DNA of 64,000 nt from Halarcobacter sp. (GCA_048571215.1 CP182352.1:704001-768000); one strand, 5' to 3'. Positions 5,613 through 20,755 are shown, counted from the first letter of the stretch. The notes: a model not told the origin generated them from the letters alone. Numbers and translations: made by a program.

Positions 5613-6802
5613 TGTTTACAATTTTACCGATAAAAGGTTATTTAGACCAAATTGATGGATTTTTTTGTGATGGTATTCATGCGGGTTTAAAACCAAATGG
5701 AAACAATGATTTAGGATTTATTTATAGTGATACTCTATGTGAAGTTGAAGCAGTTTTTACTTTAAATAAGTTTCAAGCGGCTCCTTTAAGACATTATCAA
5801 AAAACTTTTGAAAATAGATCTGCTGAGAAAACAAATTTTGTATTGATAAACTCAAAAAATGCAAATGCCCTAACAGGTCAAAGAGGGATTGATGATATAG
5901 ATGAGATTTTTTCTAAATTGAATTTTGATTTAATAAATCCAATTATGAGTAGTACAGGAGTTATTGGAAATCCTCTACCAAAAGAGAAGATAATTGCTGG
6001 GGCAAATAGTTTTAATCTTTCTTCAAAAAATGCTGAAGCTTTAAGTCGTGCAATTATGACAACTGATGCTTATGCTAAAACAGCTATGTATGAAGTAAAA
6101 CTTGAAGATGGAAGTTCATTTAAAATAGGTTCAGTTGCAAAAGGTGCAGGGATGATAAATCCAAACTTAGCAACAATGCTTTGTTTTATCTGTACAGATG
6201 CTGCAATTCCTAAAGAGGATATGAAAGAGTTATTGGAAATAAATTCAAAAACTACATTTAATGCAATCTCAGTAGATGGAGATACCTCTACAAATGATAC
6301 TGTTTTACTTTTGGCAAACAATAAATCAAACTCTTATGATAAAGAGGCTTTCAAAGAGGCTCTAAGACTTGTGATGCATGATATGGCAATGTTAATGGTT
6401 GCTGATGGTGAGGGTGCAAAAAAAGCAGTTGCTTTTGAAGTTGTTGGTGCGGCAAGTGATGAAGAAGCTGAAATTGCAGCAAAAGCCTTATCAAACTCTT
6501 TATTAGTAAAAACAGCACTATTTGGAGAAGACCCAAACTTTGGAAGAATTGCTTCAACTATAGGAGCTAGTAGAGTAACTTGTGATGAGGAAAAGCTTCT
6601 AATATCTTATAATGATGTAGTTGTATTTGATAAGGGTGAAATATTTTTTGATAAAGCTCAAGAAGAAAAAGCAGGAGAAGTACTTAAAAACGATAAATAC
6701 AAGGTTATTTGTGATCTTGGAGTAGGTGAGGGTAGCTTCACTGCATATGGATGTGACTTAGGTTATAAATATATCGAAATAAACGCAGATTATAGAACTT
6801 AA
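5612..6802 (+). CDS. argJ: Bifunctional glutamate N-acetyltransferase/amino-acid acetyltransferase
   Basis: STGVIG, IMTTD, KGAGMINPNLATML, DGDTSTND, C-terminal INADYRT. Confidence 0.97.
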   Translation: MFTILPIKGYLDQIDGFFCDGIHAGLKPNGNNDLGFIYSDTLCEVEAVFTLNKFQAAPLRHYQKTFENRSAEKTNFVLINSKNANALTGQRGIDDIDEIFSKLNFDLINPIMSSTGVIGNPLPKEKIIAGANSFNLSSKNAEALSRAIMTTDAYAKTAMYEVKLEDGSSFKIGSVAKGAGMINPNLATMLCFICTDAAIPKEDMKELLEINSKTTFNAISVDGDTSTNDTVLLLANNKSNSYDKEAFKEALRLVMHDMAMLMVADGEGAKKAVAFEVVGAASDEEAEIAAKALSNSLLVKTALFGEDPNFGRIASTIGASRVTCDEEKLLISYNDVVVFDKGEIFFDKAQEEKAGEVLKNDKYKVICDLGVGEGSFTAYGCDLGYKYIEINADYRT

Positions 6803-6870
6803 AAATATTTACACCATATTAAGTCTGGAATTGATATAATTTAATTGAAATTCAAAAAAGGATGGATGTC

Positions 6871-7092
6871 ATGTTTCATGAATATAGAGATATTATAACT
6901 CAGTTAAAGCAAAGTGATGGTCATTTTCAAAAAATCTTTGATAGACACAATGTTTTAGATGAAGAGATCGAGCAAATGAAAAAAGAACTTGCGGATCAGT
7001 TTGAAATAGAAAAAAAGAAAAAAGAGAAGTTAAAACTTAAAGATGAAGTTTATGATGTAATTATGAAGTATAAAAAAGAGAACAGTCTTTAA
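6871..7092 (+). CDS. YdcH/DUF465 family protein
   Basis: MFHEYRDIITQLK...HF..IFDRHN.LD...KKEKLKLKDE pattern. Confidence 0.85.
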   Translation: MFHEYRDIITQLKQSDGHFQKIFDRHNVLDEEIEQMKKELADQFEIEKKKKEKLKLKDEVYDVIMKYKKENSL

Positions 7093-7110
7093 GAAAAATT
7101 AAAAATAATA

Positions 7111-7153
7111 AAAGGGGATGGAAGCAAATTTTGCTTTCATCCCCTTTTTTTTT
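7111..7153 (+). terminator. Rho-independent terminator
   Basis: AAAGGGGATGGAAGCAA / TTGCTTTCATCCCCTTT hairpin followed by a T-run. Confidence 0.85.
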
Positions 7154-7222
7154 GTTCATTATACCGAGGATTAAGCCTTTATTAGATAATATATCTAAAT
7201 TTTATAATAAAGGTATTTATTA

Positions 7223-9775
7223 ATGGAAAACCTCTTTGAAAATCAAGACATAATTGACATTAATATCGAAGATAGTATTAAGGGTTCATATTTAGATTAC
7301 TCTATGAGTGTTATCATTGGTAGAGCATTACCAGATGCAAAAGATGGTTTAAAACCAGTTCATAGAAGAATTTTATATGCTATGCATGATTTAAATATGA
7401 GTGCAAGGGCTCCTTACAAAAAATCTGCAAGGATTGTAGGGGATGTAATAGGTAAGTATCACCCACATGGAGATACCTCAGTTTATGATGCACTTGTAAG
7501 AATGGCACAAGACTTTTCTATGAGAGCACCTCTAATTGATGGTCAAGGGAACTTCGGTTCTATCGATGGTGACAACGCTGCTGCTATGAGATATACAGAA
7601 TCAAGGTTTACAAAAATTTCTGAAGATATACTAAAAGATATTGATAAAGATACAGTTAATTTTGTACCAAACTATGATGATACATTAAGGGAACCAGATG
7701 TTTTACCAACTAGAGTTCCAACACTATTATTAAATGGTAGTGAAGGTATCGCTGTTGGTATGGCAACTAAGATTCCTCCTCATAATTTAGGAGAGCTTTT
7801 AGATGCAGTATTGCATGTAATAGAAAATCCAGAAGCAACTGCTGATGAATTGATGCAGTTTATTCAAGGGCCAGATTTCCCAACAGGTGGTACTATTTTT
7901 GGTAGACGTGGTATTATTGATGCTTATAATACAGGACGTGGTAGAGTTAGAATCAGAGCTAAACACCATATTGAAACTAAGGGTAAAAAAGAGATTATTG
8001 TACTTGATGAGTTACCATATCAAGTAAATAAATCAAGACTTATTGAGCAAATAGCAAATCTAGCTAAAGATAAGCAAATAGAAGGTATCTCAGAAGTTAG
8101 AGATGAATCAGATAGAGATGGGATTAGAGTTGTAATTGAGCTTAAAAAAGATGCTATGAGTGAGATTGTTATGAACAATCTTTACAAATCAACTCCTATG
8201 GAAACCACTTTTGGGATTATCCTTTTAGCTGTATATAACAAAGAACCAAAAGTATTTAATCTACCAGAGCTTTTAAATGTGTTTTTATCTCATAGAAAAA
8301 CAGTTATTATTAGAAGAACTATTTTTGATTTGGAAAAAGCAAAAGCTAGAGCACATATTTTAGAGGGTCTTAAAATTGCTTTAGATAACATCGATGAAGT
8401 TGTTAAGATTATTAGAGCTTCAGCAAATGATGCAGAGGCAAAAGATAGTCTTCAAAATAGATTTGGATTAAGTCCAATTCAATCACAAGCTATTTTAGAT
8501 ATGAGACTTGGAAGACTTACAGGTCTACAAAGAGATAAATTAGAAGCAGAATATCAAGAGTTATTATTGCTTATTGCAGAGCTTGAAGCTATTTTAAAAT
8601 CTGAAGAGAAACTAAATGAGATTATCACTGAAGAGATAATGGATATTAGAGAAAAATATTCAGATAAAAGAAGAACTGAAATTGAAGACTCATATGATGA
8701 GATTGATATTGAAGATTTAATTCCAAATGAGCCAATGGTTGTTACCATCACTCATAATGGATATGTAAAAAGAGTACCAATTAAATCATATGAAAAACAA
8801 AGAAGAGGTGGTAAAGGTAAAGTAGCCGTTACTACTCACGATGATGACTTTATTGAAAGATTCTTTGTGACAAATACTCATGATACCTTGATGTTTGTAA
8901 CAAATATGGGTCAATTATACTGGTTGAAAGTATATAGAATTCCAGAAGGAAGTAGAACAGCGAAAGGTAAAGCTGTTGTAAATCTTATCAACTTAAGATC
9001 AGATGAGAAGATTATGGAAATAATCCCAACTTCAGACTTCGATGAATCTAAATCTTTAGCTTTCTTTACTAGAAATGGTATTGTAAAAAGAACATCTTTA
9101 TCTGAATTTAGTAATATAAGAAGTAATGGTGTTAGAGCTATTGTATTAGATGATGCAGATGAGATTGTAACAGCTAAGATTACAACTGTAGAATCTCAAT
9201 TCTTGATGATTTTCACAAGTCTAGGTCAATGTATTAGATTTGATATTGAAAAAACAAGAGAGCAAGGAAGAAGTACAAGAGGTGTTAGAGGTATTAAGTT
9301 CAAAAAAGATACTGATTTTGTAGTTGATGCAAATGTAGTAAATAGTGAAGAGCAAGAGTTATTAACAGTATCTGAAAAAGGTATTGGAAAAAGAACAACA
9401 GTTGATGAGTATAGACTTACAAATAGAGCTGGTTCTGGTGTTATCTCTATGAAACTTAGTGCAAAAACAGGAAATGTAGTTGGTGCTGTACTTGTAGATG
9501 AAGCACAAGACTTGATGATCTTAACTTCAATTGGTAAAATGATTAGAGTTGATATGCAAACAATTAGAAAAGCTGGAAGAAATACTTCTGGTGTTATTAT
9601 TGTAAATGTTGACAAAAAAGATAAAGTAGTTTCAATAGCAAAATGTCCTAAAGAGGATGATGATGAATTAGATATTGAAAATGCAGATACTATGGATGGA
9701 ATAGATTTAAATGATTTTAATCTATTAGATACTCCAAATTCAGAAGAAAATAGTGATGATAAAGGAAAAGAGTAA
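7223..9775 (+). CDS. gyrA: DNA gyrase subunit A
   Basis: [15 protein letters not shown] active site, GyrA box QRRGGKG. Confidence 0.98.
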
Positions 9776-13369: not shown

Positions 13370-13444
13370 TCCGGCATAGCTCAGTGGTAGAGTAGATGAC
13401 TGTTAATCATTTGGTCCCTGGTTCGAATCCAGGTGCCGGAGCCA
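13370..13444 (+). tRNA. tRNA-Asn (GTT)
   Basis: 75 nt cloverleaf, anticodon arm GATGA-CTGTTAA-TCATT, GTTCGAATC T-loop, encoded CCA. Confidence 0.97.
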
Positions 13445-13482: not shown

Positions 13483-13557
13483 TCCGGCATAGCTCAGTGG
13501 TAGAGTAGATGACTGTTAATCATTTGGTCCCTGGTTCGAATCCAGGTGCCGGAGCCA
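13483..13557 (+). tRNA. tRNA-Asn (GTT), second identical copy
   Basis: Identical to 13370-13444. Confidence 0.97.
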
Positions 13558-13779
13558 CTTTTTATTTTCGTATGAAAATAAATCAAATCACTAAACATAC
13601 TTTTTAAAGATTCCTGCTTTAAATCAAAAAAACATCATAGTCATTAACAGACGTTAACTCCCATAATATTTTTTCAATTTTCATTGAACTATTCTTTGTG
13701 CTTGCACTCTCTTTGAGAAAAATTATATTCATTGATTTGATTTGAATATAATTAAGTATCCTGTCTGCAGAATTTTGTC
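13514..13779 (+). repeat. att-like repeat copy 1 (tRNA-Asn 3' half plus downstream ~230 bp)
   Basis: Near-identical to 14976-15211 and 20489-20755. Confidence 0.9.
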
Positions 13780-13902
13780 CCCAGAATTTTATTTCTCGAA
13801 TTGATGTACTTTAATAGAATTAAAATGATTTTAGGTATTTTATGAATTGAATCAAAATATGTTATAATCAAAAAAAGCTTTTCAAGGACTAGAGATTCAA
13901 CC

Positions 13903-13968
13903 TCAGGGGTGTAGTTTTCAGGGGTGTAGTTTGAAGAAATCAGGGGTGTAGTTTTGGGTGTAGTTTTC
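13903..13968 (+). repeat. Four direct repeats of (CAG)GGGTGTAGTTT
   Basis: Copies at about 13904, 13919, 13941 and 13956; fifth copy at 15287-15299. Confidence 0.85.
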
Positions 13969-14161
13969 TTACAAGACCTGCAACAGCAGCATGCCAACAA
14001 AATGCTGGTGATGATTGACCTGCAACATTTAATTGTTGTCCATTATTATCATAAACTATACCACCTGATTCCCAAGCTTGACAAGTATTGTTACCTATAG
14101 CAAATAAATTGCCACTTAATACTAAAAATACTGCCACTACACTAAGTAATAATTTTTTCAT
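13940..14161 (-). CDS. Small secreted protein with two Cys; C-terminus runs into the repeat array (possibly truncated)
   Basis: AAGG RBS, MKKLLLSVVAVFLVLSGNLFA signal peptide; terminal KLHPKLHP is encoded by the repeats. Confidence 0.55.
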   Translation of the reverse strand: MKKLLLSVVAVFLVLSGNLFAIGNNTCQAWESGGIVYDNNGQQLNVAGQSSPAFCWHAAVAGLVRKLHPKLHP

Positions 14162-14247
14162 ATTGTACCTTTTTTTGAATTGAGATATTTTTATCTTCAC
14201 TTAACTTAAATAATATTAAAATATATTAAAATATAATAGGAATAGAT

Positions 14248-14982
14248 ATGAAAATAAATAATATAAATTATACTTACAATAAAAGTATTGATTCTAATAG
14301 CCAAACTACAACTCAAAATGTATCTTTTGCTGAAGAAATGAATAAAGTTACTGATTCAAAAGTTATAGAAACAAAAGGAAAAATTTTAACCTTCTTAGAA
14401 AAAATAAATGCTTTTGAAGGATTTACTAAAGAAGAAGAAATAAAATTTAAAACTATATTAAAAGATGATAAGGTGACTCAAAAAGAGTTTGAGTCAATAC
14501 CTTATGAGATGTTAGATAAATTTAAAACCTTAGTATTACCTACTAATAATTCAAACTTTGGAGAGTTTCAATATGTTGAAATGACTAATAAATCAAAACT
14601 AATGCTATCAACAACTGCTTTATCAGGAGATAAACTCTTTAATCAATCTGTATATGAAACTTATGGAAATATGTCAGAAGATGATATTGTCAATATGTCT
14701 TTAGAATTAAGTATTAATCTTAACCAAGCTTACAATCAAGATGACTTAAAAGTTTTCTATATAGGGATATTAGAAAAGACAAATAATATTTCACCTGATA
14801 TGATGAAACAAATGACTTTAGATTTTCAAAAAGTTTTACTAGATATGCTTAATATGTCTAATGATTATATAGAAACAGTGAAAGACCCTCAAGTATTAAA
14901 ACAACTATATAGTACAAAAAACTTTTATTCATCAATTTTAGATAATTATAATGAATTAAGAAGTGAGTCTAGCTATGTTTAA
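14248..14982 (+). CDS. Hypothetical protein with N/S/T/Q-rich N-terminus
   Basis: 244 aa ORF with RBS; stop abuts att copy 2; degenerate paralogue at 20123-20494. Confidence 0.75.
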   Translation: MKINNINYTYNKSIDSNSQTTTQNVSFAEEMNKVTDSKVIETKGKILTFLEKINAFEGFTKEEEIKFKTILKDDKVTQKEFESIPYEMLDKFKTLVLPTNNSNFGEFQYVEMTNKSKLMLSTTALSGDKLFNQSVYETYGNMSEDDIVNMSLELSINLNQAYNQDDLKVFYIGILEKTNNISPDMMKQMTLDFQKVLLDMLNMSNDYIETVKDPQVLKQLYSTKNFYSSILDNYNELRSESSYV

Positions 14983-15211
14983 TTATTTGATCCTTGGTTA
15001 GAATCCAGGTGTCGGAGCCACTTTTTATTTTCGTCTGAAAATAAATCAAATCACTAAACATACTTTTTAAAGATTCCTGCTTTAAATCAAAAAAACATCA
15101 TAGTCATTAACAGACGTTAACTCTTATAATATTTTTTCAATTTTCATTGAACTATTCAAAAATTATATTCATTGATTTGAATATAATTAAGTATCTTGTT
15201 CCCAGAATTTT
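14976..15211 (+). repeat. att-like repeat copy 2 (degenerate tRNA-Asn 3' half plus downstream region with internal deletion)
   Basis: TTAATTATTTGATCCTTGGTTAGAATCCAGGTGTCGGAGCCA followed by the same downstream sequence as copy 1. Confidence 0.9.
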
Positions 15212-15397
15212 AGAATTTTAAAAAATTGAATTAATTCTAGGGATTAACAAATTAGTTTGAAATAAGTAAAAATGGAGATTCAATCACAGGGGTGTAGTTA
15301 TGGTTCAACCTCTTTTTTGTCTTCTTGAAAAAAGAAAAATAAGCCCCAGATAATGACTATTGAGGCTAATATTATCAATTTCATATAAAACTCTTTT

Positions 15398-16069
15398 TTA
15401 AGCATATGGTTGGTAAGAATTTTCTTTATCACTATAGTTTTTAGTATATAAATCTAAAATATCCTCATAAAACTTTGCATAGTCTTTTGCTTGTTGTCCA
15501 ACAACACTTTGTTTTGAATGGTGTGTTTGTGCCATTGATAGTAAAAAATCTTTGAATTCACTTGATGATAAGTTTTGTGTTGAATTAGCTGTATTATCAT
15601 TGTAATTAAAGATAAGTTCACCATTATTATCTATTCCTAACATACTATAATTTGGATTTAGTTCTTTCCCAGCTTTAAATCTTTTTAGGTTTTGATTTAA
15701 ATCAGATTGATAATTTATAGCATCACCTAGAGACATATTTGAAAGTTTGTTAAACATATTATTTTGCATATCTTTATTTTCAAATTGTGAGGCAGCAAAT
15801 AAAGATATCCCCATTAAAAAAGCTTTTTCATCCCCAAATTTATCTTTTAATTTTTCTTTAAGTTCATTTCTTTCTTCTAAAGACATATTTTTAAAAGCTT
15901 GTACATCTAATAGATCAACTTCTTTATTTTCTTCAATTTCATTTCTATTTGATTCTACCTCTTGCATAGCACTTAAAAAATCACCTGATGTTGACTCTGT
16001 TTTAGAAGTAGAATTACCACTTTGAGTTTGATAGCTTGTATAACTTTGTTGTGTTGCTGTTACATTCAT
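15398..16069 (-). CDS. Hypothetical protein, N-terminus shared with 16113-16721
   Basis: MNVTATQQSYTSYQTQS N-terminus; AAGGA RBS. Confidence 0.8.
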   Translation of the reverse strand: MNVTATQQSYTSYQTQSGNSTSKTESTSGDFLSAMQEVESNRNEIEENKEVDLLDVQAFKNMSLEERNELKEKLKDKFGDEKAFLMGISLFAASQFENKDMQNNMFNKLSNMSLGDAINYQSDLNQNLKRFKAGKELNPNYSMLGIDNNGELIFNYNDNTANSTQNLSSSEFKDFLLSMAQTHHSKQSVVGQQAKDYAKFYEDILDLYTKNYSDKENSYQPYA

Positions 16070-16112
16070 AATTTATCCTTTAAATATAAAAGATGGAATA
16101 TTTCATCTTTTA

Positions 16113-16721
16113 TCAATTTGCATTTTGATTATTTCCCATTGTTTTATATTGGTTTTCTTGTTCTTTTGATTGGTAGTCTTTGAAGAAGTTTTGAGCATCT
16201 GTTAATAGTTCTAGCATATAAGAGATATCTCCTCCAAATTTTTTTGCTCCTTCTTCTATATCCTTAATTTCATTCCCAAAGTACTTCATAATACTTCCAA
16301 TTGATGAAAACTCTTTTGAAGGGTCTTTTTTATGATATTCAGCTACAACATTACCATTTTCATCTTCCATTAATTTACCTCCAAAAGAATTCAAAAATTT
16401 TCCACTCAAAAGCATATAATCTCTTACTGATAAATCGGCTAAATAGTATAAAAATTCATTTTTTGCATTTTGATCTTTTTCAAATATTGAATCTTCAAAC
16501 CATTTATTATCTCCATCTTGAAAAGCATTATATCTTTCTAATCCAAGTTGATATTCTTCATCATACTCTTCTTCTTTTAATTTTGCTGTATTCTCTGTTT
16601 TATAAGATCCAGTATTTTCTAAAATATCTAAAAATTTTTCTTTAGATTCAGTATTAGTAGTAGGATTACTACTTTGAGTTTGATAGTTTGTATAGTTTTG
16701 TTGAGTCTCTGCTACATTCAT
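16113..16721 (-). CDS. Hypothetical protein, N-terminus shared with 15398-16069
   Basis: MNVAETQQNYTNYQTQS N-terminus; AAGGA RBS. Confidence 0.8.
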   Translation of the reverse strand: MNVAETQQNYTNYQTQSSNPTTNTESKEKFLDILENTGSYKTENTAKLKEEEYDEEYQLGLERYNAFQDGDNKWFEDSIFEKDQNAKNEFLYYLADLSVRDYMLLSGKFLNSFGGKLMEDENGNVVAEYHKKDPSKEFSSIGSIMKYFGNEIKDIEEGAKKFGGDISYMLELLTDAQNFFKDYQSKEQENQYKTMGNNQNAN

Positions 16722-16770
16722 ATTTTATCCTTTAGAAATAAAAGATATAAGTATTCCGTCTTTTATCTAT

Positions 16771-16881
16771 TTATTGTACATCTAATTCAACTACATAATC
16801 AGCATAGTGTTTTACTATAATATTCCCAGAACCTACATCTTCATTGTATTCAAACCAATATCTTTTTCCATAAATATAAAA
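16771..16881 (-). pseudogene. 3' remnant of an unidentified gene
   Basis: Open frame FYIYGKRYWFEYNEDVGSGNIIVKHYADYVVELDVQ* without a start codon, followed by a hairpin like the one between the two paralogues. Confidence 0.4.
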
Positions 16882-16977
16882 TATATATTTATATATTATA
16901 TTAACTATATTTTATTATTAATAAATTATAGTTAATCTACGTCACTTTTACGTCACAATTTATATATAATTTTATAA

Positions 16978-17603
16978 TTATATTTTTTTCTTTAAATTTT
17001 CAATTATCCTACTATATTTCCAACCCAATCAATCAACAGTTCAAGATTCTCTAAATTGATTTTTTTAATCAGCTGGATTAGTAACTGAAATTCAATTGGC
17101 AATAGCTTCAACACTTAAAGGCTCATCTATATTTAAAGATATAAGTTTATTTATAAACTTAACTAGATTTGTTTTAGTTAGAGTATTAAATCAAGTGTCA
17201 TTGTCTAAATTTAAATGAATAATTTTTAAATCTATATTTTGTACATTTAAATTTAAACCTTGTATTTGAAATGAATTATTTTGAAGATTACTATAAGCTT
17301 ATCTGTAATACTTTTAGGGATTAAATCAAATCAGTTAGCTATCATAAATTTTAATATTTCAATTTGTTTTTCTTTGGCTTCTTCTTTTCTAGTTACCAGA
17401 TTTTAATTTCAAATTTATACTCTTTAACTATACCTTTCTGTACTTTTTTAACTCTTTTTTGAATATTAGAAAACTTCTCTTTGATAGTTTGAATTTTTTC
17501 TTTTAGTTCACTAGAAGAGTTATAGTTTCAAAGAGCAAAAATATCAGCTTGAGTAATTAAATCCTTTGATTCTATTTGCATGCTTTCGTATACTTTATTT
17601 ATA
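16978..17603 (-). pseudogene. Gene relic (~205 codons) with six in-frame TGA, one TAA and two frameshifts; probable TGA=Gly (code 25) origin
   Basis: Manual translation gives protein-like text (MQIESKDLITQADIFAL*NY...FMIAN*FDLIPKSITDKLI...EPLSVEAIAN*ISVTNPAD...RES*TVD*LGWKYSRIIENLKKKI). Confidence 0.65.
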
Positions 17604-17675
17604 TCTCATAATGAAATGATTAAAAAGTTTGATTAATTAAAGAGCTAAAAAAAGTTTAATAAAAGATATGTTTAA
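17601..17675 (+). repeat. ~75 bp direct repeat copy 1
   Basis: ATATCTCATAATGAAATGATTAAAAAGTTTGATTAATTAAAGAG...GATATGTTTAA, matches 18910-18983. Confidence 0.85.
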
Positions 17676-18015
17676 TGTTTTTTATTTTGTTATGAAATAA
17701 AAATCTAAAGGTAGAATGGGATGTTAGTCTCACAGTATAGCTCTGATAGGAATGAAATTAAATCTTGATTTGATTGGAATGGATAATAGGAAATGGCTTT
17801 ATAAAATAATATTATACATTTTTAATTTTAGATTATAAATAATTGATAATGATATAAATAATAAATAAAAAATCACTTTTTTAATACTATTATTTATTAG
17901 TTAGTATTATTCTTCATAGAGTTGACTTTAATAGGAGTAGTGGATGGTGATAAAACTACAATTGTTAATTATAATTATATTGTAGGGTGTAATATTGAAA
18001 AATTAAGGAGAGAAA

Positions 18016-18729
18016 ATGTTAGTTAACAAAAAAATAGTACTTCAAGGATTTATAGTTGTCTTTGTAGTTATTTTTCAAGGGTGTGCTTATAGTGGTAATC
18101 AAATTGTTGAGGATTCTGTTGGCGCGAATAGAGATAGTGTGCTTGGTAAATATGAAAGTGGAGTTGGAACGCTTGCTGTTACTTCAGATAGAAGAATGGT
18201 TGTCGTAAATATGAAAAATTCAGAGTTTTGTGCTGAACCTGAACCTTTAACTGCAAGTAGCTTTACCTCAAAATTAGAGGCTTTATTAGATGCAACAGTT
18301 AAAGATGATGTTGATGCAAAAGTTGAGTTTATGAGAGAGTATAACACTGTAATTTCTCAATTATTCAAATCGTCACAAGGTTTACGTTTCGCACAGATAC
18401 TACAATATAATTTATGTCAAGCGGCAAGAAATAAGGATATAGATGATAAAACTAGTTTTGAAGATATTTTTAAATATATTTCAAGATTATCAAAAGATAT
18501 TATTATTGCAGAAAATAACGTTGAAAAGGTTAATCAGACAATAACAATCTCAAAACAAAAGGAATTATCAAGTAAGTTGGAAAAAGAAATAAAGACTAAA
18601 GATGAGTCAATAAAGACTTTAAAAGAATCTAATAAAACTCTTCAAACCGAAGTTAAAAATTTAAAGGAAGAAAAAATGGTTCATGAAAAAGAAATTGAGT
18701 ACTTGAAAAAAATGGTTGAAAAAAAGTAG
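18016..18729 (+). CDS. Putative lipoprotein with C-terminal coiled coil
   Basis: Hydrophobic N-terminus with lipobox FQGC; FCAEPEP motif; K/E-rich tail; AAGGAG RBS. Confidence 0.7.
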   Translation: MLVNKKIVLQGFIVVFVVIFQGCAYSGNQIVEDSVGANRDSVLGKYESGVGTLAVTSDRRMVVVNMKNSEFCAEPEPLTASSFTSKLEALLDATVKDDVDAKVEFMREYNTVISQLFKSSQGLRFAQILQYNLCQAARNKDIDDKTSFEDIFKYISRLSKDIIIAENNVEKVNQTITISKQKELSSKLEKEIKTKDESIKTLKESNKTLQTEVKNLKEEKMVHEKEIEYLKKMVEKK

Positions 18730-18909
18730 GTTTATAAAAAAAGTATAAAAGGATACTTGTCTTCTTTTCAAACTTTAAGAAGATAAAAAATTAAACTCTA
18801 TATTTTCTAGCTCTATAATTTAGTTCATCGAGCTTTTAATAAATGAAATAGAGATATTTTTGTTCAAAAGAAAATGTAATTGTAAAATTCAATTTAGTAT
18901 CAATAAATA

Positions 18910-18983
18910 ATATCTCATAATGAAATGACTAAAAAGTTTGATTAATTAAAGAGGTAGGAAAAGTTTAATAAAGATATGCTTAA
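18910..18983 (+). repeat. ~75 bp direct repeat copy 2
   Basis: Matches 17601-17675 with a few substitutions. Confidence 0.85.
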
Positions 18984-19049
18984 AATTTATATCTTTATAA
19001 CATTATTTTTGTGTGCAAGAGAAATGCAACTTGTAAAAAGGAAAAGAAA

Positions 19050-20090
19050 ATGCCATTTTATAATAAAATAGATAAAAAGACTAAAGAGGGGAAAAGAACA
19101 GTTGAGGGTTTATTTAGGTTAAAAAAACAGTTAAAAGAAGAGGTTCCTATGCGAAATTTAAATGATAATATTCTTCTAGGAACTTGGAATATAAGAGAAT
19201 TTGATTCACCTGCATATGGAGAAAGAAAAGAAGAATCTATAATGTATATAGCTGAAATAATATCACATTTTGATATTGTAGCTATTCAAGAAGTTAGAGC
19301 AAATCTAAAAGCACTAAAAAAACTAAAATATAGACTAGGTTCAAATTGGGATTATATAGTTTCTGATGTTACAAGTGGGAAAAAAGGGAATAAAGAAAGA
19401 ATGGCTTTCCTTTTTGATACTAGAAAAATTACTTTTGGTGGACTTGCTGGGGAATTAGTACTCTCTCCTATCAGAGATAAAGAAGTATCTCAAATAGCAA
19501 GAACACCTTTTATGTGTGGATTTAATGCAGGATGGATTAACTTTGTCCTTTCAACGGTACATATTATATATGGAGAAAATAATAAAAATAATCTTGAAAG
19601 AATTAAAGAAATAGAAGAGATTGCAGTAGTTATTAAAAATAAAGCAGAAGATGAAAACTCATGGAGTAAAAACTTTGTTTTATTAGGAGACTTTAATATA
19701 TACAGTCCTAAAGACAAAACAATGGAAGCTTTACAAAAGAATAAATTTATAGTTCCAGATGATTTAAAAAAGCTTCCTAGTAATGCAATAAAAAATAAAC
19801 ATTATGATCAAATTGCATTCCCATTAAATAGTGATTTAAAAAGAACTAATAATTCAGGCGTTTTTGATTTTTTTAAAAGTGTTTATCGTATAGAAGATGA
19901 AATAGAATATATTAAAGAGATGGGAGATAATTATTATAAAACTTCAAAGGGGGAAATTAGAACTTCTAAAAGCAAAAAGAGTTATTATAAAACATATTGG
20001 CGTACTCACCAAATGTCAGACCATTTATTAATGTGGATAGAATTAGAAATTAATCAATCACATAAATACTTATTAAGAGAAAAGGTTTAA
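19050..20090 (+). CDS. Endonuclease/exonuclease/phosphatase (EEP, DNase I-like) family protein
   Basis: TWNIREF, AIQEV, LGDFN, YDQI, MSDH catalytic motifs; ATG at 19050 has RBS. Confidence 0.9.
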   Translation: MPFYNKIDKKTKEGKRTVEGLFRLKKQLKEEVPMRNLNDNILLGTWNIREFDSPAYGERKEESIMYIAEIISHFDIVAIQEVRANLKALKKLKYRLGSNWDYIVSDVTSGKKGNKERMAFLFDTRKITFGGLAGELVLSPIRDKEVSQIARTPFMCGFNAGWINFVLSTVHIIYGENNKNNLERIKEIEEIAVVIKNKAEDENSWSKNFVLLGDFNIYSPKDKTMEALQKNKFIVPDDLKKLPSNAIKNKHYDQIAFPLNSDLKRTNNSGVFDFFKSVYRIEDEIEYIKEMGDNYYKTSKGEIRTSKSKKSYYKTYWRTHQMSDHLLMWIELEINQSHKYLLREKV

Positions 20091-20122
20091 ATATTAAGAG
20101 TATAAATGGTAAGTGTAATCTG

Positions 20123-20494
20123 TCAACAATTAGTTTATCAGAGAATCAATTTTTTAATCAATTTGTATATAAAACTTATGAAAAAATGACAGAAGATGAT
20201 ATTATTAATATATCTTTAGAATTAAATATAAATTTTACACAAGCTTATAATCAAGATGATTTAGAAGTTTTTTATATAAAAGGAATATTAAAAAAGACTA
20301 ATAAAATCTCACCTGATGTAATGGAACAAATGACTTTAGATTTAAAGTTTTACTTGATATAATTAATAAGTCTAGTAATTATATGAAACAGTAAAAGACC
20401 CTTAAGTATTAAAATAACTTCACAATACAAAAAACTTTTATACATCAGTTTTAGATAATTATAATGAATTAAAAAGTGAGTCTAGCTATGTTTA
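20123..20494 (+). pseudogene. Frameshifted copy of the 3' half of 14248-14982
   Basis: Colinear nucleotide similarity to ~14608-14982, both ending ...GAGTCTAGCTATGTTTAA; indels and stops. Confidence 0.85.
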
Positions 20495-20755
20495 ATTATT
20501 TGGTCCCTAGTTCGAATCTAGATGCTGGAGCCATTTTTTATTTTCGTATGAAAATAAATCAAATCACTAAACATACTTTTTAAAGATTCCTGCTTTAAAT
20601 TAAAAAAACATCATAGTCATTAACAGATGTTAACTCTTATAATATTTTTTCAATTTTCATTGAACTATTCTTTGTGCTTGCACTCTCTTTGAGAAAAATT
20701 ATATTCATTGATTTGATTTTAATATAATTAAGTATCTTGTTCCCAGAATTTTGTC
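20489..20755 (+). repeat. att-like repeat copy 3
   Basis: TTAATTATTTGGTCCCTAGTTCGAATCTAGATGCTGGAGCCA plus the same downstream ~230 bp. Confidence 0.9.

Follow-up and report, generated by a model that had tools for sequence, protein, structure and literature searches.

The 64,000-nucleotide stretch of the Halarcobacter sp. genome analysed here (the window; GCA_048571215.1 CP182352.1:704001-768000) contains on its minus strand, at 16981-17629, a broken gene in which in-frame TGA codons stand for glycine. Based on comparisons with an intact paralogue in the same genome and with homologues from other bacteria we propose, with a probability of roughly 0.6, that this region is the relic of a partly recoded (TGA = Gly) lineage of integrative elements that is resident in Campylobacterales. 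The gene family in question is known so far only from the chromosomes of Arcobacteraceae, Sulfurimonadaceae and other Campylobacterales and from metagenome contigs of a similar kind, mostly in an intact and conserved form and with TGA and GGN (N, any nucleotide) as synonymous codons, and it travels with a large serine recombinase, a tyrosine integrase, an N6/N4 DNA methyltransferase, HD-domain proteins and membrane proteins that also use TGA for glycine. TGA-free cargo, such as a cyclic oligonucleotide-based anti-phage signalling system (CBASS) and a PKD-repeat protein, is interspersed among these recoded genes. The relic itself is the decayed 3' third of a gene of ~530 codons, left behind after a 5' deletion, two frameshifts and one nonsense mutation.

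The reading of UGA as glycine is known as genetic code 25, which work by Campbell and by Rinke in 2013 is said to have revealed in Gracilibacteria and Absconditabacteria, two bacterial groups within the candidate phyla radiation (CPR). The genes described here resemble code 25 in that TGA is found at glycine positions, TGA and GGN are interchangeable, TGG encodes tryptophan and only TAA and TAG serve as stops.

The relic, its intact paralogue and the meaning of TGA

The preliminary description of the window had noticed a protein-like gene relic on the minus strand with frameshifts at ~17293 and ~17400. Alignment bears this out and yields the following features:

16981..17629, minus strand: relic, a 5'-truncated and frameshifted copy that spans residues ~312-530 of a TGA = Gly gene with ~530 codons
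17581-17396, 17402-~17299 and 17298-16981, minus strand: the pieces of the relic, in three frames, with protein-like translation
17029..17530, minus strand: six in-frame TGA codons of the relic (low coordinates 17528, 17331, 17191, 17092, 17041 and 17029)
17065..17067, minus strand: TAA nonsense codon, with TTA (Leu) at the matching codon of the paralogue
17405..17412 (approximate), minus strand: first frameshift, small indels in the alignment to the paralogue
17289..17290, minus strand: second frameshift, a 1-bp deletion relative to the intact paralogue

The three pieces comprise 202 codons, among them six TGA, one TAA, no TAG, two TGG, no GGA and three GGT, which matches exactly the earlier counts for TGA, TAA, GGA and GGT. 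Homology to relatives runs upstream past the protein-like part (17581-16981) to ~17629, and a seventh TGA (17606-17608) lies within this extension. A Pfam search of the pieces returned no family.

The paralogous stretch (G000:C1:2226607-2227019; G000 denotes this genome, one contig of 3.61 Mb with 28.5% GC, the window being G000:C1:704001-768000) shares 87% DNA identity with 16991-17390 of the window; upstream of ~17390 the similarity is confined to the protein level. It is part of a frame (G000:C1:2225353-2227026) of 557 codons that contains 22 TGA, neither TAA nor TAG, three TGG and only four GGN; given the composition alone, the chance of a TAA/TAG-free frame of this length is P ~7e-22. Five of the six TGA codons of the relic (17331, 17191, 17092, 17041 and 17029) coincide with TGA codons of this intact paralogue, far more than chance would produce, and thus predate the decay, and three of the five are invariant or near-invariant glycine columns (G411, G452 and G495) in an alignment of 18 homologues (A2, see below). 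The TAA, in contrast, replaces a leucine codon of the paralogue and is a true decay mutation. Together with the two frameshifts and a 12-bp in-frame deletion near 17214-17222 relative to the paralogue, it shows that the relic is indeed, as the earlier description had it, a decayed and untranslatable gene copy. Over 132 codons, relic and paralogue show 9, 11 and 21 differences at the first, second and third codon position, respectively, with 16 synonymous and 22 non-synonymous codons, a mixed picture as regards the age of the decay.

A scan of the whole genome for TAA/TAG-free frames of at least 150 codons with at least three TGA that are not explained by code-11 open reading frames (ORFs) returned 13 frames. 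Three of them are strong, and all three lie within one island at 2208-2227 kb:

G000:C1:2208559-2210400: large serine recombinase with 32 TGA and 4 GGN (PF00239, PF13408, phrog_95)
G000:C1:2216384-2217193: N6/N4 DNA methyltransferase with 11 TGA (PF01555, 3e-38)
G000:C1:2225353-2227026: the paralogue of the relic, i.e. the gene of the 530-aa protein, with 22 TGA

The assignment of TGA to glycine, proposed earlier for the relic, can be examined in all these genes. When the paralogue is compared with the copies in two related genomes (G007 and G016), TGA columns alternate with GGN-glycine at at least nine positions and never with TGG. In A2, for which the 18 homologues were translated from DNA (~9,800 codons), there are 303 TGA, 186 GGN and 26 TGG codons and no internal TAA or TAG. 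GGN-glycine is also present in 43 of the 81 TGA columns and TGG in none, and glycine makes up 12.6% of the other residues in these columns as compared to a background of 2.0%. The recoded neighbours agree with this pattern. In the methyltransferase 4 of 11 TGA codons align to glycine residues of CcrM or DpnA, including the Gly in front of the Asp in the S-adenosylmethionine-binding motif, and in the serine recombinase two of four aligned TGA codons match glycine residues of the TP901-1 integrase; no TGA is found at a tryptophan position in either alignment, and conserved tryptophan residues are encoded by TGG. Proteins in databases carry W at the TGA sites because the gene calls were made with TGA = Trp, and W and G alternate within the same columns; read in this way, the paralogue would contain 25 Trp and 4 Gly in 557 residues. 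Judged from these alignments, TGA is a glycine codon in this gene family.

Between the TGA-rich genes of the island there are TGA-free ones, which code for parts of a CBASS, a 1401-aa PKD-repeat protein, an IS256-type transposase and tyrosine integrases. The recoded recombinase, the methyltransferase and a DnaJ-like neighbour match phage protein families. Searches of Pfam and PHROGs recognized neither conjugation nor packaging genes in the islands and neither phage structural nor lysis genes in the element, but only integrase, methyltransferase and one uncharacterized phage family, and in the search for a vehicle the recombinase matched only Firmicutes integrases at 22-26% identity. Self-BLAST revealed no direct repeats resembling attachment (att) sites at the borders of this large island, and no RNA sequencing run is listed for the paralogue. 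The CBASS cyclase (G000:C1:2210780-2212325; 6780-8325 of locus L008) is spread over two overlapping frames, a DncV-like nucleotidyltransferase followed by an AGS_C domain, with one TGA near the frame junction, and is possibly a broken gene or a frameshift.

No protein family was found for the 530-aa product in Pfam or PHROGs. An AlphaFold model based on the 18 code-25 translations is mostly helical with a small sheet (mean predicted local distance difference test score (pLDDT) 81.5, predicted template modelling score (pTM) 0.56). Foldseek returned no match to it in the PDB at E<=0.001, and a VIA-align structure search yielded only generic helical bundles with a best Z of 8.8, which is below the level that is meaningful for helical proteins.

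Occurrence of the family

Among 61 relatives, a genome of the same genus (G007) carries a copy that is 62% identical and contains 22 TGA, and a further one (G016) carries a distant copy whose matching part contains 8 TGA and whose whole frame contains 11. A protein collection contains 69 relatives of the 530-aa protein, most of them full length. Collections of species genomes and metagenomes were scanned with two short peptide patterns. In 185,579 species genomes this led to 15 loci, labelled Arcobacter, Poseidonibacter, Aliarcobacter, Sulfurimonas, Sulfuricurvum, Sulfurimonadaceae, Campylobacteraceae or Campylobacterales, the exceptions being one metagenome-assembled genome (MAG) labelled only 'bacterium' and one labelled Helicobacter pylori. 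None of the 15 is labelled Gracilibacteria or Absconditabacteria in this two-pattern scan, which included no direct search of CPR genomes. By the preliminary description, its proposal would be refuted if the best homologues were code-11 genes from Arcobacteraceae or relatives. This applies by half, since the best homologues do come from these bacteria but use TGA = Gly themselves and are not code-11 genes. In the metagenomes 14 loci were found on AT-rich contigs, each of them (14/14) a TGA-rich gene among long TGA-free ORFs.

Across all loci the homologues contain 4-26 TGA codons and are surrounded by long TGA-free ORFs, with occasional TGA-rich neighbours, namely a tyrosine integrase, serine recombinases and HD-domain, DUF805, bPH_2 and DUF3024 proteins; none of the 29 loci has a uniformly recoded (code-25) context. 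The 139 frames of at least 200 codons at 25 loci comprise 75 without any TGA, 27 with one or two, 33 with at least three that make up a share of at least 0.3 of the glycine codons, and four with at least three at a lower share. The recoded recombinase is rare and was found in two of 201 sampled genomes of the order. At 25 of the 29 loci a single frame without TAA or TAG covers the entire match.

The GC content at the third codon position (GC3) of the homologues follows that of the neighbouring TGA-free genes (r=0.80, Spearman 0.88, n=12 loci) and the share of TGA among glycine codons decreases with GC3 (r=-0.92; from 0.85 at GC3 0.11 to 0.19 at GC3 0.41), the 12 loci being related and including few points of higher GC. 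The GC3 trends are as expected for, and suggest, TGA and GGA as neutral synonyms that drift under the local mutation bias. In a quick tree the family stays within Campylobacterales and is partly clustered by host with some mixing between host families, a pattern as for a mobile element, as far as such a tree may indicate.

Three matches on Sulfurimonas/Arcobacter MAG contigs (L028 123-839, L029 1-606 and L030 1-606) cover only the C-terminal ~200-240 codons and start near the first residue of the relic. Two of them are located at contig ends, and in L028 the frame is already closed 12 nt upstream of the match, so that truncation may recur at this point or the protein may have a short form.

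Decoding of TGA, rival explanations and known systems

The host is a standard-code bacterium. Release factor 2 (RF2) is present, with a prfB score of 509 bits that exceeds the cut-off. Among the 1910 ORFs with at least 250 codons, 261 are terminated by TGA, and 46% of the glycine codons are GGT and 38.5% GGA. ARAGORN predicts 45 tRNAs, the Rfam model RF00005 44 above its cut-off, and the sole UCA anticodon is that of a typical tRNA-Sec. Organisms that use code 25, in contrast, are recoded throughout their genome, have lost RF2 and possess a tRNA-Gly(UCA), whereas here RF2 is kept, such a tRNA is lacking and only few genes per island are recoded. An Rfam search of the large island returned no tRNA, low-threshold ARAGORN gave 1640 calls on the genome that were only noise, and a tight tRNA(UCA) pattern had no match in it. 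The only tRNA-Trp(CCA) of the host (G000:C1:238870-238945) has a C-A mismatch at the top of the anticodon stem, which leaves effectively four base pairs. Such mismatched tRNA-Trp are common in Campylobacterota and have been proposed to read UGA as Trp, according to PMC13092985; this form cannot explain TGA codons that stand for glycine, although some UGA read-through could result from it.

We infer that selection maintains the family during its residence in Campylobacterales and that, as a consequence, a decoder provided in trans would at some point translate its TGA codons into glycine. This decoder would most likely be a tRNA-Gly(UCA) on a phage, a plasmid or another element that is absent from the chromosome, rendering translation of the recoded genes conditional. 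More specifically, the code might be split gene by gene, i.e. the recoded integrases, the methyltransferase and the 530-aa gene would be silent until a UGA-to-Gly decoder enters with a phage, a plasmid or a code-25 partner cell, their TGA usage would be in mutational equilibrium with the AT bias of the host, and the cargo would be written in the standard code. We hold this version tentatively and give it slightly less than even odds; if true, translation would naturally lock the mobility of these elements, or code-25 epibionts and their hosts would be connected by a channel.

Several observations weigh against the proposal of a resident, partly recoded lineage. No decoder was found, as neither this genome nor any of the fetched loci contains a tRNA(UCA) other than tRNA-Sec, and in 10 other element-bearing genomes the tight tRNA(UCA) pattern gave nine matches, none of them a tRNA, with the weakness that this pattern catches only 19 of the 45 tRNAs of this genome. 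Searches for the 530-aa gene in viral contigs, phage records and plasmid records gave no match, and in the viral contigs there were zero relatives each when the family alignment, the recombinase or the DnaJ-like protein served as the query; thus no vehicle or helper is known. Moreover, as the integrases are recoded, a naive standard-code cell without the decoder could not integrate the element, which fits a decoder in trans only awkwardly and leaves a cycling of the element between code-25 cells and these hosts in play as a rival explanation. Decay does occur, since four of the 29 copies (L023, L032, L039 and L042) are interrupted in addition to the relic in the window. Finally, distant relatives in code-25 genomes could have escaped the two-pattern scans, and the small, related sample behind the GC3 trends has to be counted here as well.

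The preliminary description had favoured a different origin, in which a fragment of a Gracilibacteria/Absconditabacteria-type organism or of a code-25 phage integrated at tRNA-Asn, was untranslatable in its new host and decayed, leaving a footprint of transfer from CPR bacteria and a hint at a host link. TGA = Gly is indeed the code of those lineages and their phages, as described in 10.1101/2021.08.26.457843, PMC10746230 and PMC13059738, the host has no decoder, the copy in the window is decayed, and the matches of recombinase, methyltransferase and DnaJ-like neighbour to phage protein families would fit as well. However, all homes of the family found here are Campylobacterales chromosomes or AT-rich metagenome contigs with TGA-free neighbours, and a code-25 context or CPR label is found at none of the 15 species-genome and none of the 14 metagenome loci. 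In code-25 phages, which are assigned to code-25 hosts, ~90% of the genes are recoded (Borges et al., preprint 10.1101/2021.08.26.457843), whereas only 37 of the 139 frames here contain at least three TGA and 75 contain none. In the quick tree the family does not leave Campylobacterales and its members cluster partly according to their hosts, and it was found in none of the viral, phage or plasmid records. CPR DNA that was dead on arrival is hard to uphold because the copies are mostly intact (25 of 29, in standard-code hosts) and conserved and their composition follows that of the recipients, so that we consider this capture, and the footprint with it, unlikely; an ancient ultimate origin in a code-25 lineage is conceivable. 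We also doubt that the element cycles between code-25 epibionts and Campylobacterales in a manner similar to transfer DNA (T-DNA), with the TGA-rich genes working in the epibiont and the TGA-free cargo in the host. Such cycling would explain why TGA-rich and TGA-free genes are so sharply separated and why the integrases are recoded though the host lacks a decoder, and PMC10746230 reports dual-code phages as well as spacers of standard-code bacteria that target code-25 phages, but none of the 29 loci lies in a code-25 context, GC3 follows the Campylobacterales host and conjugation or packaging genes were not recognized in the islands.

An ordinary code-11 pseudogene that acquired its TGA codons by decay (e.g. 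from TGG), or a TGA that means Trp as in code 4, is far less probable and contradicted by the alignments. The W in database calls, the fact that TGG is converted to TGA by a single transition and the stem mismatch of the host tRNA-Trp, a form proposed to read UGA (PMC13092985), might be taken in its favour; yet TGG occurs in none of the 81 TGA columns and GGN in 43, ~9,800 codons of 18 homologues are free of TAA and TAG, the paralogue would end up with 25 Trp and 4 Gly, and conserved glycine residues of solved methyltransferase and integrase structures align to TGA. It is hardly conceivable, either, that foreign reads were joined into the chromosome during assembly. Nothing was found in favour of such a chimera, the genome is a single contig of 3.61 Mb (100% complete, 0.83% contamination), 87% identical copies are present at two separate loci, the relic is framed by att-like repeats of a host tRNA and other genomes show the same arrangement, on contigs that are between 124 kb and 1.05 Mb long. 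In addition, the paralogue stretch recurs in independently built contigs of four DNA runs (two samples of one study, possibly the source DNA) with 0.97-1.00 of the sampled words.

Full-text searching found no literature on TGA = Gly genes in Campylobacterales and, as far as found, the relic is part of a more general, apparently undescribed phenomenon. Recoded phages and prophages of standard-code hosts are described by Borges et al. (10.1101/2021.08.26.457843) as large phages that use TAG = Gln or TGA = Trp, often with suppressor tRNAs. The elements discussed here share with them mobility, partial recoding, a low GC content and the idea of conditional translation, but differ in that the recoded meaning is Gly, neither structural phage genes nor a suppressor tRNA were found and the integrases are recoded. 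In phages that interact with both code-25 CPR and standard-code bacteria, TGA is mostly shunned altogether, and such phages may be compatible with either code (Liu et al. 2023, PMC10746230). They, too, are elements at the border between codes 11 and 25 with TGA-free genes that are readable in both, whereas TGA-rich and TGA-free genes are mixed here in one island of a standard-code chromosome. The patescibacterial phage RSA-ATP1 carries a tRNA-Gly-sup(TCA), first reported in 2026 (PMC13059738), i.e. a mobile UGA-to-Gly decoder exists in nature; its host, however, already reads UGA as Gly, and no such tRNA was found near the elements or in the genomes studied here.

So far TGA = Gly has been linked to CPR bacteria that use code 25 and to the phages of these bacteria, whereas here it appears in a conserved family, and even in integrases, of ordinary-code Campylobacterales. 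If these genes are translated, a mobile decoder must exist, with the genetic code working as a switch or firewall that controls how genes move. Without translation in these hosts, the elements would have to make a passage through code-25 cells, and this would be a rare physical link between CPR bacteria and their hosts. Genes of this type will be taken for pseudogenes by standard annotation or have their TGA misread as Trp, as in the database calls.

Integration site and conserved non-coding block

Genomic islands and integrative elements that target tRNA genes are flanked by direct repeats related to the tRNA. The surroundings of the relic fit this scheme:

13370-13444 and 13483-13557, plus strand: two identical tRNA-Asn(GTT) genes in tandem, the integration target
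13516..13620, plus strand: att-like repeat copy 1, the last 42 nt of tRNA-Asn and 63 bp downstream, 99/105 identical to each of the other copies
14979..15083, plus strand: att-like repeat copy 2, left border of a 5.4-kb islet
20492..20596, plus strand: att-like repeat copy 3, right border of the 5.4-kb islet

The three 105-bp repeats are mutually 95-99/105 identical. The relic lies inside the 5.4-kb islet (15084-20491), which is preceded by a first islet of ~1.4 kb, both being arranged in tandem at tRNA-Asn. These three repeats of the tRNA 3' end show that the relic sits in DNA that was integrated at tRNA-Asn, which confirms the hotspot named in the preliminary description. Like other tRNA-targeted islands the tandem islets are flanked by direct repeats of the tRNA 3' end; unlike them, the islet in the window has lost any integrase and carries a gene in another code. 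No integrase domain was found in Pfam or PHROGs among the window ORFs at 13752-20090, which is consistent with a degraded islet. In a Sulfurimonas locus (L024) only 190 bp separate the end of an intact homologue from tRNA-Asn, and both are arranged convergently as in the window. Apart from the relic and a non-coding block next to it, the islet shares no content with other loci, including in a tblastx comparison of the window with the large island, and no further recoded gene was found in it. A minus-strand frame at 18087-18731 with six TGA was considered as a recoded gene but rejected, as it is the low-complexity antisense of a plus-strand ORF (18016-18729).

The non-coding block, ~490 bp in length, precedes the DnaJ-like gene (phrog_15863) in the large island and at four other loci (L017, L018, L022 and L027), with 72-88% DNA identity across genera. 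Its copies, and the two fragments in the window, are located as follows:

G000:C1:2217716-2218238: copy in the large island
L017 4731-5212, L018 6337-6810, L022 1162-1472 and L027 20-334: copies at the other loci
17651..17806 of the window, minus strand: fragment just upstream of the relic, 83% identical to G000:C1:2217794-2217950
18760..18983 of the window, minus strand: second fragment, ~69% identical to block positions 213-452

Conserved hairpins are predicted in the 5' part of the block. One of them is Flavo-1-like and reaches 41.7 bits in the copy of the large island as compared to a cut-off of 42; the corresponding hairpin in the window fragment (17735-17797, plus strand) scores 28.9 bits against the gathering score of 42. 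Three sequences show a single compensatory base pair in the putative hairpins. A 75-bp direct repeat (17601-17675 and 18910-18983, 92% identical) encloses a 1.3-kb segment with the ORF 18016-18729; its second copy is part of the second fragment, and repeat and segment look as if the conserved block had undergone a duplication or an insertion.

Elsewhere in the genome there are two very long TAA/TAG-free frames that contain TGA, both on the minus strand. One (G000:C1:3570884-3576547) comprises 1887 codons with 122 TGA, the other (G000:C1:574900-580800) 1966 codons with 24 TGA and overlaps twelve tandem repeats of 486 bp; both are probably alternative frames of repeat-rich genes.

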